64,000 nucleotides of DNA from Desulfosudaceae bacterium. Lineage in GTDB: Bacteria > Desulfobacterota > Desulfobacteria > Desulfobacterales > Desulfosudaceae. This document shows, piece after piece, positions 42,476-48,407 of this stretch. A model generated the notes under the pieces. The model was not told where the DNA came from, ran no database searches, and saw nothing but the letters and a program-made list of their open reading frames with translations. The translations under genes were made by a program, and so were the position numbers. The first letter of the stretch is position 1; each line of letters begins with the position of its first letter. The stretch is from NCBI GenBank assembly GCA_963674745.2, contig CAXXDV010000001.1, forward strand, positions 1,440,001-1,504,000, given 5' to 3'.

Positions 42476-42609
42476 GGCTATTTTTCAGCCTAACGTCTCA
42501 AGCCAATGGCAGCCAGGGCTTCCACTGACTTGGTTAAAGAATTTAATTGTTCAACTCCCCCGACATTTCAAAACCCGAGTGCCCTGGCTGTCCACTTGAG
42601 CTTCTTGGT

Positions 42610-43319
42610 GTGTGCCGGGCACGGCACATGTTCTTAAAAGTGAGCCAAGGCTATCATATATTTGATAATTTTGGCAAGTCTTAGACCCAGCCTGATGGAG
42701 GCGAAGGGTGTAGCGGTAGTGCAACGGGGTACCGGTGACGGTGCTTCGGGAGGAAGCCGCCCTGCTGCGGAAGGGTACCGCGAAGGTACGGGATGACGCA
42801 CAGGAATCGAGTATAAGGCGCGCACGCCGGGACGAGTCTGCACAACAAGGCAAAGTCCTCTATCCATCTTAAGGCGTGTCCGTAAACTCGGCATTTACGT
42901 ACCGAAAGACACGTGCTTACCCCGGGAGATCTCTCCTGTGCCGTACAACGGCTGAGGGTCGGGTAACCGGCCCTGACCGCAGGGGAGAAGTCAGCAGAAG
43001 GCATAGTAGCCGGCGGAAACGAGCCGGGCCTCCCTTAAGCGGGAGAAGTATACCCGGAGGACTCACCCCGGTGAAGGCCGGAACGGTGCCCGGACCGAAT
43101 GGCACGGGTAAATGGTGGTGGCAAGTAAGGGAGTATCTCTTACGGGGATAATGCGGCAGCTGCCGAAATTCACGTAGCGAGCTTTCTCTGAAAACCCGGT
43201 GGAGCTGGTGGGATAACTCACAGCCGGTTTCATCAGTACCAGCCGAACCGCCTTGGTACGTGATCCGTATGCCAGGTGGTGTGGGAGGGGGTAGCCGTGA
43301 GGCTACTCCCTATCCCAAT
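42610..43319 (+). mobile_element. ORF-less group IIC-attC intron, copy 1 (710 nt)
   Basis: 5' GTGTG; DV GAACCGCC..GGTGGTG with CGC triad; DVI ending CCCAAT; splits attC core GT|TGGGGC; no RT ORF. Confidence 0.92.
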
Positions 43320-43334
43320 TGGGGCAAAAAAATA

Positions 43335-43372
43335 TTGACAATTCGCCCTTTATATGTACAATATGCTGTACA
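43335..43372 (+). promoter_or_regulatory. yefM-yoeB promoter/operator
   Basis: TTGACA-16 nt-TACAAT; two TGTACA palindromes 12 bp apart (43355, 43367). Confidence 0.8.
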
Positions 43373-43384
43373 GGAGGTGATGAA

Positions 43385-43636
43385 ATGGAAGCCATAACCT
43401 ATACAGCAGCAAGACAAAACCTTGCTAAAACAATGGAAAAAGTTTGTCGAGACCGTGCTCCGATGATTGTAACACGGAAGTCCTCGGAATCTGTAGTTAT
43501 TATGTCTCTTGAGGATTTTGAATCCCTTGAAGAGACAGCATATCTATTGCGGTCACCGAAAAACACAAGACGGCTGATTGAATCTATCGTCCAACTCGAA
43601 AATGGCAAAGGAGATGAAAAGGAGCTTATAGAGTGA
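43385..43636 (+). CDS. yefM: YefM antitoxin (cassette)
   Basis: MEAITYTAARQNLAKTM..SLEETAYLLRSPKN. Confidence 0.93.
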   Translation: MEAITYTAARQNLAKTMEKVCRDRAPMIVTRKSSESVVIMSLEDFESLEETAYLLRSPKNTRRLIESIVQLENGKGDEKELIE

Positions 43637-43887
43637 AGCTCATTTTTTCTGACCATGCCTGGGACGATTACATCTATTGGCAAAAAACGGACAAAAAAAT
43701 TCTTCGCCGTATCAACACCCTCATTAAGGAAACTAAACGCAGCCCTTTTGAGGGTGTTGGCAAACCTGAACCTTTGAAACATGCGCTTTCCGGCTACTGG
43801 TCCAGGCGAATCAATGACGAGCATAGATTCATTTATAAGGTTTCTGATGATGCAATTTTGATTGCTCAATTGAGATACCACTACTGA
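43633..43887 (+). CDS. yoeB: YoeB/Txe toxin (cassette)
   Basis: AWDDYIYW..GKPEPLK..WSRRINDEHR..RYHY. Confidence 0.95.
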   Translation: MKLIFSDHAWDDYIYWQKTDKKILRRINTLIKETKRSPFEGVGKPEPLKHALSGYWSRRINDEHRFIYKVSDDAILIAQLRYHY

Positions 43888-44022
43888 TCTTTCTTGTAGC
43901 CCCAACGGCGGCCGCCAATGGGAGCCAGGGCTTCCACTGACTTGCCTTAAAGTCGGTTAATGTTCGTTTTCCCCCGAATTGTTCAAAACCCGAATGCCCT
44001 GGCGATCCATTGCGCGGCCTTG

Positions 44023-44496
44023 TTAAGCGCCCATTTTCTTAATAGTATTTCGTCTTAATATGAAAAGCGTTTTCAATATAAAGAACAACACAAAGCTGAA
44101 AAAAAATCCGTTGGCTAATAATCCCACTGCAGCAAGTATTTGAGTCCTTTGGTTGAATTGTCTTTGTCCTATTGCATGATCTAATAATGGCTGGTAGATC
44201 CATTTCTGTTGTAAAGGCCTCAAGGCAGGACCAAAAGGTAAAGATAAAACAAACGAAAGATAATATGTGGAACGAATCTCGTTTTTAAAATTAACTTTCA
44301 AATTCTGGATTTCATTTTCTTCGAATTCTGGTTGTTCGATGGATTTTAAAAAAAGAGAGCCAACTTTCTTCCCGGCCAAATTCCCATGATAAATCGATAT
44401 GGAAAGGCTCATCAAAATATGAAGGAAAGCGATTGAGGCAATAATTACTATCTGTTTTGAATTGTATCTCATGTCATGCTTGGGAGCTATTGTCAT
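44023..44496 (-). CDS. Cassette membrane protein, unknown function
   Basis: Fills cassette; stop TAA inside R'' box. Confidence 0.7.
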   Translation of the reverse strand: MTIAPKHDMRYNSKQIVIIASIAFLHILMSLSISIYHGNLAGKKVGSLFLKSIEQPEFEENEIQNLKVNFKNEIRSTYYLSFVLSLPFGPALRPLQQKWIYQPLLDHAIGQRQFNQRTQILAAVGLLANGFFFSFVLFFILKTLFILRRNTIKKMGA

Positions 44497-44512
44497 ATTT
44501 TTGGCGCTTAAC

Positions 44513-44728
44513 GAGTCTGTAGGAAAAGTCTATTTTCGATAAATTTTATCTTTTTTCAGAAAAACACCTTCGTAGAATATATTTTATACTAAAACATAAA
44601 ATCCTTGCAAACCATCTATTTTAGATGGCTTCACAGAGATCATACAAAATCTTATATAACTTTCAGTTTTTCAAAAATTGGCGACAAAACCCTATGTTTT
44701 ACTCAAATTTTACTTTTTCTACAGCCTC
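44513..44728. mobile_element. 216-bp attC-associated MITE-like element, copy A
   Basis: TIRs GAGTCTGTAGGAAAAGT / ACTTTTTCTACAGCCTC; flanks AAC..ATC; 2 substitutions vs other copies. Confidence 0.8.
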
Positions 44729-44848
44729 ATCGTCGGAAGCCAGAGGCAGCCAGGGCTTTCTCGGACTGCCTTAATGATGATTAATGTTCATTTCCCCCAG
44801 GTTGCTCAAAATCCGACTGCCCTGGCTGTCCTTTCTGAGCTTCCTGGT

Positions 44849-45558
44849 GTGTGCCGGGCACGGCACATGTTCTTAAAAGTGAGCCAAGGCTATCATATAT
44901 TTGATAATTTTGGCAAGTCTTAGACCCAGCCTGATGGAGGCGAAGGGTGTAGCGGTAGTGCAACGGGGTGCCAGGGACGGTGCTTCGGGAGGAAGCCGCC
45001 CTGCTGCGGCAGGGTACCGCGAAGGTACGGGATGACGCACAGGAATCGAGTATAAGGCGCGCACGCCGGGACGAGCCTGCACCACAAGGCAAAGTCCTCT
45101 ATCCATCTTAAGGCGTGTCCGTAAACTTGGCATTTACGTACCGAAAGACACGTGCTTACCCCGGGAGATCTCTCCTGTGCCGTACAACGGCTGAGGGTCG
45201 GGTAACCGGCCCTGACCGCAGGGGAGAAGTCAGCAGAAGGCATAGTAGCCGGCGGAAACGAGCCGGGCCTCCCTTAAGCGGGAGAAGTATACCCGGAGGA
45301 CTCACCCCGGTGAAGGCCGGAACGGTGCCCGGACCGAATGGCACGGGTAAATGGTGGTGGCAAGTAAGGGAGTATCTCTTACGGGGATAATGCGGCAGCT
45401 GCCGAAATTCACGTAGCGAGCTTTCTCTGAAAACCCGGTGGAACTGGTGGGATAACTCACAGCCGGTTTCATCAGTACCAGCCGAACCGCCTTGGTACGT
45501 GATCCGTATGCCAGGTGGTGTGGGAGGGGGTAGCCGTGAGGCTACTCCCTATCCCAAT
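44849..45558 (+). mobile_element. ORF-less group IIC-attC intron, copy 2 (710 nt)
   Basis: About 8 substitutions vs copy 1; splits GT|TAAGCGG core. Confidence 0.92.
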
Positions 45559-46187
45559 TAAGCGGCATGTGGCTTTGGTGGTACGGGTACGCCCAGATGT
45601 CGTGCAGCTATTCGTGCCAAGCGACCGATGTTTTGGTTCGACGATAAGGAGACTTCCCGCAGCAGGGCTGTTGCAGTCTCCGAATTCCCAGAATGGTGAA
45701 GAATAGCAGCGAGAGAGACCCTCCTTCGGGGTGGTGTGAAGCAATCAAGGAGCCCAAGATTCCAGCGCTCAATGATCGAATGACGATCAGATAAATCGGA
45801 AAGGAATGGAAGGACGTTATTCACCAGGGAGGATTCTATCTCTTCCACAGCCTGTTCGAAACTGGACTCAGAGAGTGTCCACCAGTGATCGGTGCCATGC
45901 GGTTCAAGTACTCCAATTCGTGCACGGATCTCACATTCGGGCTCCGCGACAAACTCTGGTGATGCATCTGCGCCTTTTAAAGCCAGTGCAACTTCCGGGA
46001 TATAGACACCGATATTTATCGTGCACCTACCAGGAGGCCTTCTGCTGAGCTGCAGCTCGATTACATGAACGAGTTTCGCAGGAAGCGCGCGGTTGTAGGT
46101 GCGCCCTTTTCTGACAAACCCGTTACTTTGGAAGGTCCGCCCAAGCCGAGTCTGAAGCCGAGTTGCTATCTGTTGATGAGAACCCAT
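45558..46187 (-). CDS. DUF4304-like cassette protein
   Basis: GFVRKGRTY..VIELQLS..CTINIGVYIP..RIG..WW pattern; GC-richer than neighbours. Confidence 0.65.
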   Translation of the reverse strand: MGSHQQIATRLQTRLGRTFQSNGFVRKGRTYNRALPAKLVHVIELQLSRRPPGRCTINIGVYIPEVALALKGADASPEFVAEPECEIRARIGVLEPHGTDHWWTLSESSFEQAVEEIESSLVNNVLPFLSDLSDRHSIIERWNLGLLDCFTPPRRRVSLAAILHHSGNSETATALLREVSLSSNQNIGRLARIAARHLGVPVPPKPHAA

Positions 46188-46343
46188 ATTTGTTCTGATT
46201 CCAACTCCTTCAGCCGCTTAACGTCCGCCACCACCGGCGAGCAGGGGATGCGGACTTCGCTAAAGTGAGTTCAACTCTAAATTACGCCAAAGCTAAAAAC
46301 AGCCCGCCCCTGCGAGTCAGCGTGGGTGGCGTTGTTAGAAACA

Positions 46344-46934: not shown

Positions 46935-46962
46935 GATATTTTTATCCTACTCCGGTTTCTAA

Positions 46963-47770
46963 CGTCTGCAGCCAAAGTAGCCAGGGCTTCCAGTGACTGC
47001 CTTTAAGATGGTTGATGTTCAATTTCCCCCGAATGTTCAAAAACCGAATGCCCTGGCTATCATTTGGGCTGCTTGGTTAAGTGCCCGCATTATTCTGAAA
47101 GACTTTAACGACAGCATGGGCAAATAAATTAAATTATTTTTTTTCTTTTTACGCCTTGTCCATCATGAACCTATGAAAACGGGCCGGTCTCTTTTCATCC
47201 GGACAAATATGGCGCATTATCATTCGGCAGCGCCAGTTCGAGATTACAATTTATCTTTACTGGACAAAAATATCAACTTGGTGACAATTACAATTTTGGC
47301 AACGAATATCGATTTCAGCCAAAATTCTTTTTTTATTTGTTTCCCGTACAGATTCAGTGCACTTAACGTCTGCAGCCAAAGTAGCCAGGGCTTCCAGTGA
47401 CTGACTTTAAGGTGGTTGATGTTCAATTTCCCCCGAATGATCAAAACCCTAATGCCCTGGCTATCATTTGGGCTGCTTGGTTAAGTGCCCGTATCATTCA
47501 GAAAGGCTTTAACGACAGCATGGACAAAATAATAAAATGATTTTTTCTTTTTACGACTTGCCCATCATGAACCTATGAAAACGGGCAGGTCACTTTTCAT
47601 CCGGACAAATAAAGGCGCATTATCATCTGGCCGCGCCAGTTCAAAAATACAATTTATCGTTACTGACCGAAAAATTCAACTTGGTGACAATTACCATTTT
47701 GGCAACGAATATCGTTTTCAGCCAAAATTCATTTTTTTATTTTTTCCCCGTAAAGAATTTGTGCACTTAA
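46963..47770 (-). repeat. Gene-less ~404-bp cassette, copies 1-2 (46963-47366, 47367-47770)
   Basis: Body bounded by GTTAAGTGC..GCACTTAAC with near-identical attC; no conserved long ORF. Confidence 0.85.
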
Positions 47771-47819
47771 CGTCCGCCACCACCGGCGAGCAGGGTTTGC
47801 GGACTTTTTAAGGGTTAGT

Positions 47820-48407
47820 TCAACACCACACTATGCTAAAACTAAGGCAGGCCGCCCCTGCGAGTCCGTGTGAGTGGCGTTGTTGTGCAGCCGCATTAAC
47901 TTTTTTAAAAATTATACTATAGATTTCTATACCAATCGATTTGGCTTGGCTTTGTATGCTCTCTTTAATATTTTCGTACATATGATTTGAATAGTTGCAA
48001 TCGCTTTCCTGTCCCTCAGCGATTTGTGCAATCTTATCAGTTTCAATGTTCTTTAGCGCCTTTTGAAATTTATCTGAGAGACTATCTAAAACTATTTTTA
48101 TGTCTTTATCTCGAGTGGCATAATAAAAAGCCTTTGGCTCTTGGATTTTCCAGAGAATAGAAGCAGTATATTCAGGAAAACTGTTTAATTTTATCGGTAT
48201 TTGTTCAATTCTGCATACTTTAAATTCATGAACGTTTTCGGCAAAAGGTAATTTAAAATGAAGCCCGGGTTTAACAGGGCCTCTAACTATTTCTCCCTTT
48301 TGAGTAATGATAGCTTCACTACCTTCCATCACAGTGTAAACCGGTGAACCTGACCCACAAGCATAAAGAGTTAAGCACGGAATTAAGATTAATAATATTT
48401 TTCGCAT
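47820..48407 (-). CDS. SPFH/HflC-like domain lipoprotein (cassette)
   Basis: LYAC lipobox-like; YTVMEGSEAIITQKGEIV..PGLHFKLPF; reads into attC. Confidence 0.65.
   Translation of the reverse strand: MRKILLILIPCLTLYACGSGSPVYTVMEGSEAIITQKGEIVRGPVKPGLHFKLPFAENVHEFKVCRIEQIPIKLNSFPEYTASILWKIQEPKAFYYATRDKDIKIVLDSLSDKFQKALKNIETDKIAQIAEGQESDCNYSNHMYENIKESIQSQAKSIGIEIYSIIFKKVNAAAQQRHSHGLAGAACLSFSIVWC

Follow-up and report, generated by a model that had tools for sequence, protein, structure and literature searches.

ORF-less group IIC-attC introns in the cassette array of a Desulfosudaceae bacterium: probable copies of an intron mobilised in trans

How does an intron that lacks a gene for its own protein come to lie in two different attC sites of one cassette array? 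The question is raised by a 64,000-nt stretch of the genome of a Desulfosudaceae bacterium (assembly GCA_963674745.2, contig CAXXDV010000001.1, positions 1,440,001 to 1,504,000 of the forward strand), referred to here as the window, in which two 710-nt group IIC-attC introns are found without an open reading frame (ORF) for an intron-encoded protein (IEP). These two elements are probably copies of a non-autonomous ORF-less intron moved by an IEP made elsewhere. Such mobilisation in trans is well supported by the anatomy of the elements and has a precedent in Thermosynechococcus; splicing, the supply of an IEP in trans and present activity are what we infer. In the proposed mechanism, the intron RNA would be transcribed, spliced and bound by a reverse transcriptase/maturase from elsewhere, would reverse-splice into the folded bottom strand of another attC and would then be copied back to DNA. 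The target would be chosen by the attC hairpin and by four or five base pairs between exon-binding sites of the intron (EBS1 and EBS3) and the intron-binding sites (IBS1 and IBS3), namely EBS1 ACAA or ACCA with TTGT or TGGT and EBS3 A with T. By these pairings the intron would land between GT and T of the R'' core, antisense to the cassettes.

The two introns and their copies in the genome

The two introns occupy positions 42610..43319 (copy 1) and 44849..45558 (copy 2) on the + strand and run from GTGTG to CCCAAT, as had been described from the sequence alone; they align over 710 nt with 8 mismatches and no indel. Their likeness is bounded by these two motifs, and what likeness continues upstream is that of the two host attC sites. 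Several features of a group II ribozyme are present, including the GTGTG 5' ends, domain I to IV family scores above gathering and a consensus fold shared with related ORF-less elements. Rfam family RF02001 matches the copies at 120.9 and 109.5 bits (gathering 32) and RF01998 at 41.8-49.8 bits (gathering 35). Domains V and VI lie at 43246..43319. The AGC consensus triad of RF00029 is CGC in the alignment of copy 1 (25.1 bits, below gathering), and CGC in place of AGC is the class C form. In the consensus fold, the helices of both domains are backed by covariation and domain VI carries an unpaired UA whose A is located 7 nt ahead of the 3' end (43312). Alignment and fold agree with the class C domain V and the domain VI proposed in the sequence-only reading. 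The lack of a reverse transcriptase gene is confirmed, since the ORFs inside the introns span only 56-107 aa and Pfam gave no match for the four largest of them (86-107 aa). In place of the gene is found a domain IV of about 126 nt (43115..43240), the 5' half of which corresponds to a remnant of subdomain DIVa and to the first IEP codons. Copy 2 differs by three clustered changes at 44970-44975 (intron positions 122, 125 and 127) in a GUGA hairpin of domain I; they open one base pair and lower the Rfam score from 120.9 to 109.5 bits.

Both introns follow directly on an attC of the long type that forms their 5' exon. The first attC, at 42483..42609 on the + strand (the bottom strand as read on +; nhmmer match C1:1482483-1482609), ends in CTTGGT, and the second, at 44722..44848 on the + strand, ends in CCTGGT. 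The insertion points read CTTGGT/TGGGGC in copy 1 and CCTGGT/TAAGCG in copy 2. Removal of the introns restores the R'' cores GTTGGGG and GTTAAGC, whose complements are found, as expected from the earlier reading, at the far ends of the two cassettes, as GCCCCAAC (43893-43900) in the cassette at 43320..43900 on the - strand and as GCTTAAC (46216-46222) in that at 45559..46222, also on the - strand.

The strand assignment was examined across the genome with an attC profile built from four attCs of the window and searched with nhmmer, which gave 160 long attCs arranged in arrays. Over 130 inter-attC intervals, the longest ORF was located on the strand opposite to that of the attC and intron in 109 cases and on the same strand in 19 (none in 2), and ORFs of at least 100 aa were opposite in 98 cases versus 2 on the same strand. 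Three intact intI genes and three N-terminal intI remnants are all directed away from their own arrays, and the attC strand that equals the + strand of the window runs toward intI. In the window, the DUF4304 ORF (45558-46187, minus strand) begins 30 nt past GCTTAAC and terminates in the R'' box. This arrangement, from near the far end to the R'' box, is that of a textbook cassette. Among the eight attCs that passed a folding filter, seven have their bulged bases on the + strand's 3' arm; as few sites passed (8 of the 64 high-scoring ones tried), the orientation rests rather on ORF direction and intI polarity. Taken together, intI polarity, ORF orientation, the DUF4304 layout and the bulged bases identify + as the bottom strand and place the introns antisense to the cassettes with R'' split between GT and T, in agreement with the sequence-only reading. 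Group IIC-attC introns are described as lying antisense to cassettes, in the attC bottom strand at R'', in the available text of two papers (PMC7923331; PMC3001079).

The sequence-only reading had looked to further copies in the genome and to an IEP-encoding relative. Six full 710-nt copies were found (C1:1482610, C1:1484849, C1:2101347, C3:1848265, C3:1852232 and C3:1853775), together with one relative whose IEP frame carries an in-frame TAA. The six copies are 98.9-100% alike, with 12 variable positions, and share one 126-nt domain IV. The flanks, which the sequence-only reading had named as the place where a segmental duplication would betray itself, differ on both sides of every copy and the likeness ends exactly at the intron ends. 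The host attCs belong to three types (four long, two in two kinds of short), and insertion is always at ..GT/T on the bottom strand. Because six copies with differing flanks lie in different attC types, segmental duplication and independent ORF loss are excluded in this genome. The claim that the element moved after losing its ORF is in turn supported by the same domain IV in six attCs, by the precise ends and by the pairing with the target.

This pairing was studied in 36 complete ORF-less elements, of which 30 come from named records and the other 6 are the copies of this genome. EBS1 was found at positions 3-6 of an 8-nt loop at intron positions 231-238, which in copy 1 reads GCACAACA (42840..42847, + strand) with EBS1 ACAA at 42842-42845. 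In 29 of the 36 elements, EBS1 is complementary in its first three bases to the trinucleotide ahead of the intron (mean of 15.7 and maximum of 26 in 10000 shuffles), and the two covary in the classes AAC/GTT (21), ACA/TGT (4) and ACC/GGT (4). A column scan points to intron position 276 (A at 42885, + strand, in copy 1) as a candidate EBS3 that pairs with the T after the intron, with A opposite T in 13 of 13 cases and U opposite A in 15 of 21. Within this genome, intron position 235 (42844 in copy 1) is polymorphic for A and C across the six copies, such that EBS1 is ACAA in two ORF-less copies and in the ORF-bearing relative, and ACCA in the other four. The 4-bp pairing with the own site is perfect in three of the six ORF-less copies and reaches 3 of 4 bp in the others. 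Copy 1 (ACAA at TGGT) has one mismatch and copy 2 (ACCA at 45081-45084) matches its TGGT site perfectly. The EBS1 and EBS3 pairing, together with the EBS1 polymorphism beside TTGT and TGGT sites, points to insertion by reverse splicing after ORF loss, as read from sequence comparison. With TGGT/T in 79 and TTGT/T in 72 of the 160 long attCs, 151 sites offer a target, and targets are thus plentiful and occupancy low. Class C introns are characterized by the CGC triad, the lack of an EBS2, a target made of a hairpin with 3-4 nt of IBS1 and IBS3, and an IEP without endonuclease domain; the attC hairpin, the 3-4 nt EBS1/IBS1 pairing and the EBS3/IBS3 covariation are all observed here.

All seven IIC-attC elements of the genome, the ORF-bearing relative included, are inserted at xTGT/T or xGGT/T at an attC 3' end, directly 3' of the attC hairpin and opposite to the strand of the cassette ORF. 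In the three arrays concerned, all of them are confined to the last few cassettes on the side distal to intI; those of the window are at the 2nd and 4th attC from the array end. The window array covers 50 kb (C1:1480907-1531328), has no integrase gene and is directly followed by an intI remnant (C1:1531973-1532119). This and two other N-terminal remnants (C3:1820672-1820782 and C1:906580-906909), 48-70% identical to intact intI, stand at proximal array ends, which identifies the three arrays as integrons that have lost their integrase. In the window array, cassette-sized units at 46960-47880 are spaced by 402-404 nt and are 87-94% alike, each with a long attC and no long ORF; they look like duplicated small ORF-less cassettes.

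Domain IV and the history of the ORF-less lineage

What is left of domain IV was analysed in a consensus set of 13 ORF-less elements, the window copy and twelve from ten genomes. Compensatory changes are seen in 64 of the 192 pairs predicted in their whole-intron consensus fold. Domain IV (about 120 nt) can be aligned in all 13 and forms six helices of 30 pairs in which 96.2% of the cells are paired (31-47% in controls with slid partners). Double-sided changes are found in 14 of its pairs versus 6.9 in shuffles, none of 500 reaching 14, the structure being taken from the same alignment as its test and thus biased in its favour.

A BLAST comparison of the ORF-less domain IV with ORF-bearing introns gave no match, and the 126-nt domain IV of the window has no BLAST likeness to the ORF-bearing copy residing in the same genome and is common to ORF-less elements elsewhere. 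The likeness appears by profile search only: the ORF-less domain IV profile matches the syntenic DIVa and ORF start in six of eight ORF-bearing introns (E 5e-7 to 0.015). There the matched stretch contains a Shine-Dalgarno sequence, the initiation codon and some 20 codons of the frame. ORF-less elements have lost the ATG and read AAAGAGC or similar in place of AGGAGG. In mobile group II introns the IEP binds mainly at DIVa, as established for IIA introns in work cited in the consulted part of PMC2882425. By analogy, the remnant would play the same IEP-binding role here, and the element would have retained this part of domain IV and lost the remaining ORF.

The sequence-only reading had treated the ORF-less form as a local event. 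It is instead, on sequence comparison, a member of an old and widespread ORF-less lineage rather than a one-off. In a search of 401 genomes of the same order, with two candidates scored per genome, matches were found in 121, many of them contiguous to positions 1-680 or 1-710, 660-745 nt long and 71-85% identical. In parallel, a pattern scan for a short domain IV followed by this domain V across 185,579 species genomes gave 54 loci in 29 named assemblies, nearly all from Desulfobacterales or Desulfatiglandales. The hosts include Desulfobacter latus, D. curvatus, D. vibrioformis, Desulfosarcina alkanivorans, D. cetonica and many metagenome-assembled genomes (MAGs). The ORF-less type of domain IV is present in 53 of the 54 loci, the exception being L076, described below. 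By profile, 30 of the 54 loci are full length, the others being 5'-truncated or cut at contig ends. Several genomes hold near-identical copies at different sites, for instance three 714-nt copies that are 99.0-99.9% alike in G403. Two odd short contigs were assigned to a Bacteroidota MAG bin and to a 'Candidatus Methanovorans' (ANME archaeon) bin (L082 and L102); these placements may be binning errors from co-occurring sulfate reducers.

The history of the lineage appears to be that of a mosaic. In a tree of domains I to III and V to VI (25 rows), ORF-less and ORF-bearing elements are interleaved, and the resident ORF-bearing copy groups as sister with the ORF-less ones of this genome (support 90/82). 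Constraining all ORF-less rows of this core tree to one group costs 283 log-likelihood units (approximately unbiased p-value 7.6e-35), and a single origin of the entire element is thereby rejected. In a tree from the 72 nt at the start of domain IV (23 rows), one branch parts all 14 ORF-less elements from all 9 others, with support 99/99 and presence in 100% of 200 bootstrap trees. Domain VI of the window copies resembles that of ORF-bearing introns from other genomes, and the domain VI of the resident ORF-bearing copy is common to ORF-less copies elsewhere. The elements therefore appear to be mosaics, as their ribozyme cores interleave while the DIVa remnant marks one origin. Most simply, these trees would be explained if the ORF was lost once, long ago, and ORF-less and ORF-bearing introns then exchanged ribozyme modules repeatedly. 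The DIVa branch could be inflated by parallel change once the sequence was released from coding; the derived letters that the ORF-less elements share speak against this as a full explanation. An old ORF-less lineage of Desulfobacterales would accordingly coexist with ORF-bearing relatives and swap ribozyme modules with them.

A wider claim can be put forward only tentatively, as we give it somewhat less than an even chance. The elements would form an ancient, self-sustaining, 'SINE-like' lineage that arose by one ORF loss and kept a structured, DIVa-only domain IV across many genera of Desulfobacterales. It would survive by swapping core and domains V and VI with co-resident autonomous IIC-attC introns, which would keep it matched to the local helper IEP, and it could multiply even without a cognate IEP.

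The source of the protein and competing explanations

If the copies were moved in trans, an IEP must have been supplied. The ORF-bearing relative (C3:1855133-1857065) is likewise inserted in an attC, with TTGT/T as its site. Over positions 1-511 it is 93.5% alike to the ORF-less copies, and its domain V is 100% identical to theirs. Its IEP frame of 446 codons contains RVT_1 (155 bits) and GIIM (79 bits) and no other domain, and the product is 51-56% identical to those of plasmid-borne ltrA genes of several phyla. Aside from a stop codon discussed below, the frame is well preserved, with YADD present and 8 other private changes at columns invariant in six intact relatives.

Two further group II introns were encountered in the genome. 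One, unrelated, lies at C3:1849533-1851730 (+; L009:5534-7731); it shares its C3 cassette array with IIC-attC copies and is on the strand opposite to theirs. It scores 90 bits with RF02012 and 66 bits with RF00029, and its IEP is frameshifted into two frames of 274 and 277 aa. The other is present in two identical copies inside attC arrays (C1:2271160-2273026, L013:684-2550, and C3:2339..., L014). It scores 111 bits with RF02005 and encodes an intact 458-aa reverse transcriptase/maturase (TIGR04416, 342 bits) that is 31% identical to the cognate IEP.

In other genomes with the ORF-less form, the cognate IEP is intact in G402 (two frames, 84% identical) and in G331 (463 aa, 64% identical), forms a 407-aa frame in G401 (65% identical), is broken in G071 and is fragmented in G208/G405. 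Four sequencing runs, all consisting of assembled contigs, were also examined, two of RNA and two of DNA type (X1 and X3). Contigs of X1 and X3 follow the ORF-less sequence as far as 43114 and then run on into an ORF-type DIVa, which indicates that ORF-bearing relatives occur in these samples. In the two RNA runs were found pieces 93-95% alike to intron domain I and to the toxin-antitoxin genes of the window, possibly from relatives or from DNA. Joints that skip 43011-43245 were distrusted, their sides being shorter than 30 letters and lying between similar words.

Several observations weigh against mobilisation in trans as outlined above. RF00029, listed for copy 1 only, aligns over its full model (1-77), at E 0.05 and with a score below its gathering value of 40. 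EBS1 mismatches its site in three of the six copies (ACAA at TGGT twice, ACCA at TTGT once). In this genome, one in-frame TAA at codon 311 splits the cognate IEP frame between the reverse transcriptase and the maturase (X) domain, where the six intact relatives have TGT, TGC, TAT or TAC (Cys or Tyr), and no working helper IEP is visible in the assembly, this being the sole cognate gene. Elsewhere, two of the five other multi-copy genomes tested (G403 and G404, drafts or MAGs) gave no cognate IEP at E<=1e-40, and the IEPs of G282 and G346 (draft assemblies or MAGs) are only 35-37% identical. Finally, no contig of the four runs bridges 42609-43320, hence neither an empty site nor spliced exons were seen, nor was transcription of these copies, these runs being poor data for splicing and without bearing either way.

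The broken gene gives weight to the view that the copies are relics, which multiplied under a working IEP and are now immobile. The frameshifted second IEP of the same array, the 12 variable positions and the hairpin changes of copy 2 with their lower Rfam score would fit such decay. On the other side stand the otherwise well-kept cognate IEP, which suggests that the TAA is recent, a strain variant or a sequencing error, and the 98.9-100% likeness of the copies. This view is a serious one that we hold to be a little short of probable, and it concerns the present only, leaving past mobilisation in trans undisputed. A way around the broken gene would be a non-cognate reverse transcriptase, for example the 458-aa IEP, which is intact in two identical copies within attC arrays and matches TIGR04416. 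Young ORF-less copies in genomes where no cognate IEP was found, and the relaxed 'driver' IEPs described for T. elongatus in the available text of PMC2882425, would speak for it. Nevertheless, that protein shares only 31% identity with the cognate one and comes with a ribozyme of another domain I to IV family (RF02005), and the DIVa remnant of the ORF-less form resembles that of the cognate introns, which makes this driver unlikely.

Other explanations dispense with retrohoming or with mobility after ORF loss. In arrays that are rich in repeats and whose cassettes are mobile and sometimes duplicated, as are the 404-nt units at 46960-47880, the introns might be imagined to have spread as DNA, whether by homologous recombination, by segmental duplication or with cassettes moved by the integrase. 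Such spread is already contradicted by the different flanks, the three attC types and the likeness that ends at the intron ends; moreover, the integrase cuts at R' and not at GT/T of R'', and EBS/IBS covariation would be unexpected, leaving very little probability to this route. Alternatively, the ORF might have been lost separately at each site. Independent deletions are known in the family, as illustrated by a 692-nt element (L076), by a form of 885 nt with multiple deletions in G008 and by IEPs deleted in G009 and in G165. For this genome, separate loss at each site is likewise contradicted and hardly deserves credence, given one common 126-nt domain IV that is also found in ORF-less elements of other genomes and the 99/99 support in the DIVa tree. 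Lastly, a benefit to the host has been considered, either from distal cassettes being fixed by destruction of R'' or from an outward promoter as in the intron S.ma.I2. The position of all seven introns at intI-distal array ends would suit it, and outward promoters are known in ORF-bearing IIC-attC introns according to the part of PMC3001079 at hand. A promoter scan inside the intron gave weak matches only (9/12), on the antisense strand, and near-identical spread in many copies is rather the mark of a selfish element; a host benefit therefore seems improbable. Mobilisation of an ORF-less intron by an IEP made elsewhere is thus retained as the best explanation.

Known systems and minor observations

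The elements show the features of group IIC-attC introns that were examined except an IEP of their own, by which that lineage is defined phylogenetically. The comparisons that follow draw on the available portions of the cited papers. Like S.ma.I2 and its relatives, the present introns have a class C ribozyme and lie antisense in the R'' of the attC bottom strand at the TTGT/T consensus (IBS1/IBS3) (PMC3001079, PMC7923331, PMC4424553). As for those introns, integrons and integrase-less arrays serve as hosts, mostly in the last cassettes, and the IEP, where the relatives here have one, is without endonuclease domain. The members described in these portions encode their own IEP, whereas the copies here are numerous and have an ORF-free domain IV of 126 nt. 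In addition, some copies here use TGGT/T by means of a changed EBS1, and in other genomes the insertion point of relatives is shifted forward by one base (TGTT/A).

A parallel is offered by the ORF-less TeI3 introns of T. elongatus, which retain DIVa together with N- and C-terminal remnants of an ORF removed by one deletion (Mohr et al. 2010, PMC2882425) and which were experimentally shown to be mobilised in trans by the IEPs of related introns (PMC2882425). TeI3 introns are of IIB type and occupy varied sites in one genome (PMC2882425), whereas here the ribozyme is class C, the targets are attC hairpins, the form occurs in 29 named assemblies and the ribozyme cores interleave with those of ORF-bearing introns. 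UHB.F1 is a defective IIC-attC intron, also antisense in an environmental cassette array, from a soda lake (Sonbol and Siam 2021, PMC7923331). It differs in being a 5'-truncated single copy with a frameshifted IEP and not a complete ORF-less ribozyme (PMC7923331). C.te.I1 and a few other bacterial ORF-less introns do have a complete ribozyme without IEP, usually with a related IEP in the genome (PMC4424553, PMC3245105). In the consulted parts of these reviews such introns are called rare and short-lived in bacteria, unlike the present form, which is widespread, with 71-85% identity and its structure kept. ORF-less introns have been counted genome-wide (Miura 2022, PMC8919778), and the portion of that paper available does not name the present kind.

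A search of full-text literature, with subscription journals outside its coverage, found no description of ORF-less IIC-attC introns. To our knowledge, ORF-less introns mobilised in trans are represented by a single well-studied case, in one cyanobacterial genome. What is new is not the existence of ORF-less introns driven in trans, already known from Thermosynechococcus, but an ORF-less lineage across named assemblies with a covarying domain IV, a DIVa remnant and mosaic cores. It offers a natural system in which to study how a minimal ribozyme recruits a helper reverse transcriptase and how helper and passenger co-evolve. It is also a natural system for the effects of insertion on integron cassette dynamics, as each insertion splits R'' and should disable that attC. 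In addition, a 710-nt ribozyme whose target rule consists of 4-5 bp and a hairpin is a compact natural template for IIC-based targeting ideas.

Some observations stand apart from this argument. The 692-nt element L076 (= L067:210-905) still carries a Shine-Dalgarno sequence, an ATG and about 27 codons fused to the last codons of the ORF, the trace of an independent and recent deletion. Its domain IV of 126 nt equals that of the old ORF-less lineage in length, which suggests a preferred size or preferred breakpoints for ORF loss. At four loci of other genomes (L094, L091, L107 and L052), an ORF-less intron stands directly after the 3' end of another copy, often a 5'-truncated one; the domain V and VI hairpins of one intron may serve there as the target hairpin of the next. 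The cassette body downstream of copy 1 contains a PhdYefM antitoxin gene (43385-43636, + strand) and a YoeB toxin gene (43633-43887, + strand), both of which oppose the cassette direction. In X3, a 375-nt metagenome contig (window 43319-43684) holds this cassette body without the intron; the 9 letters before it are different and look like a short attC end. The contig, too short to interpret, would, if real, represent the same cassette body joined to a different attC elsewhere.

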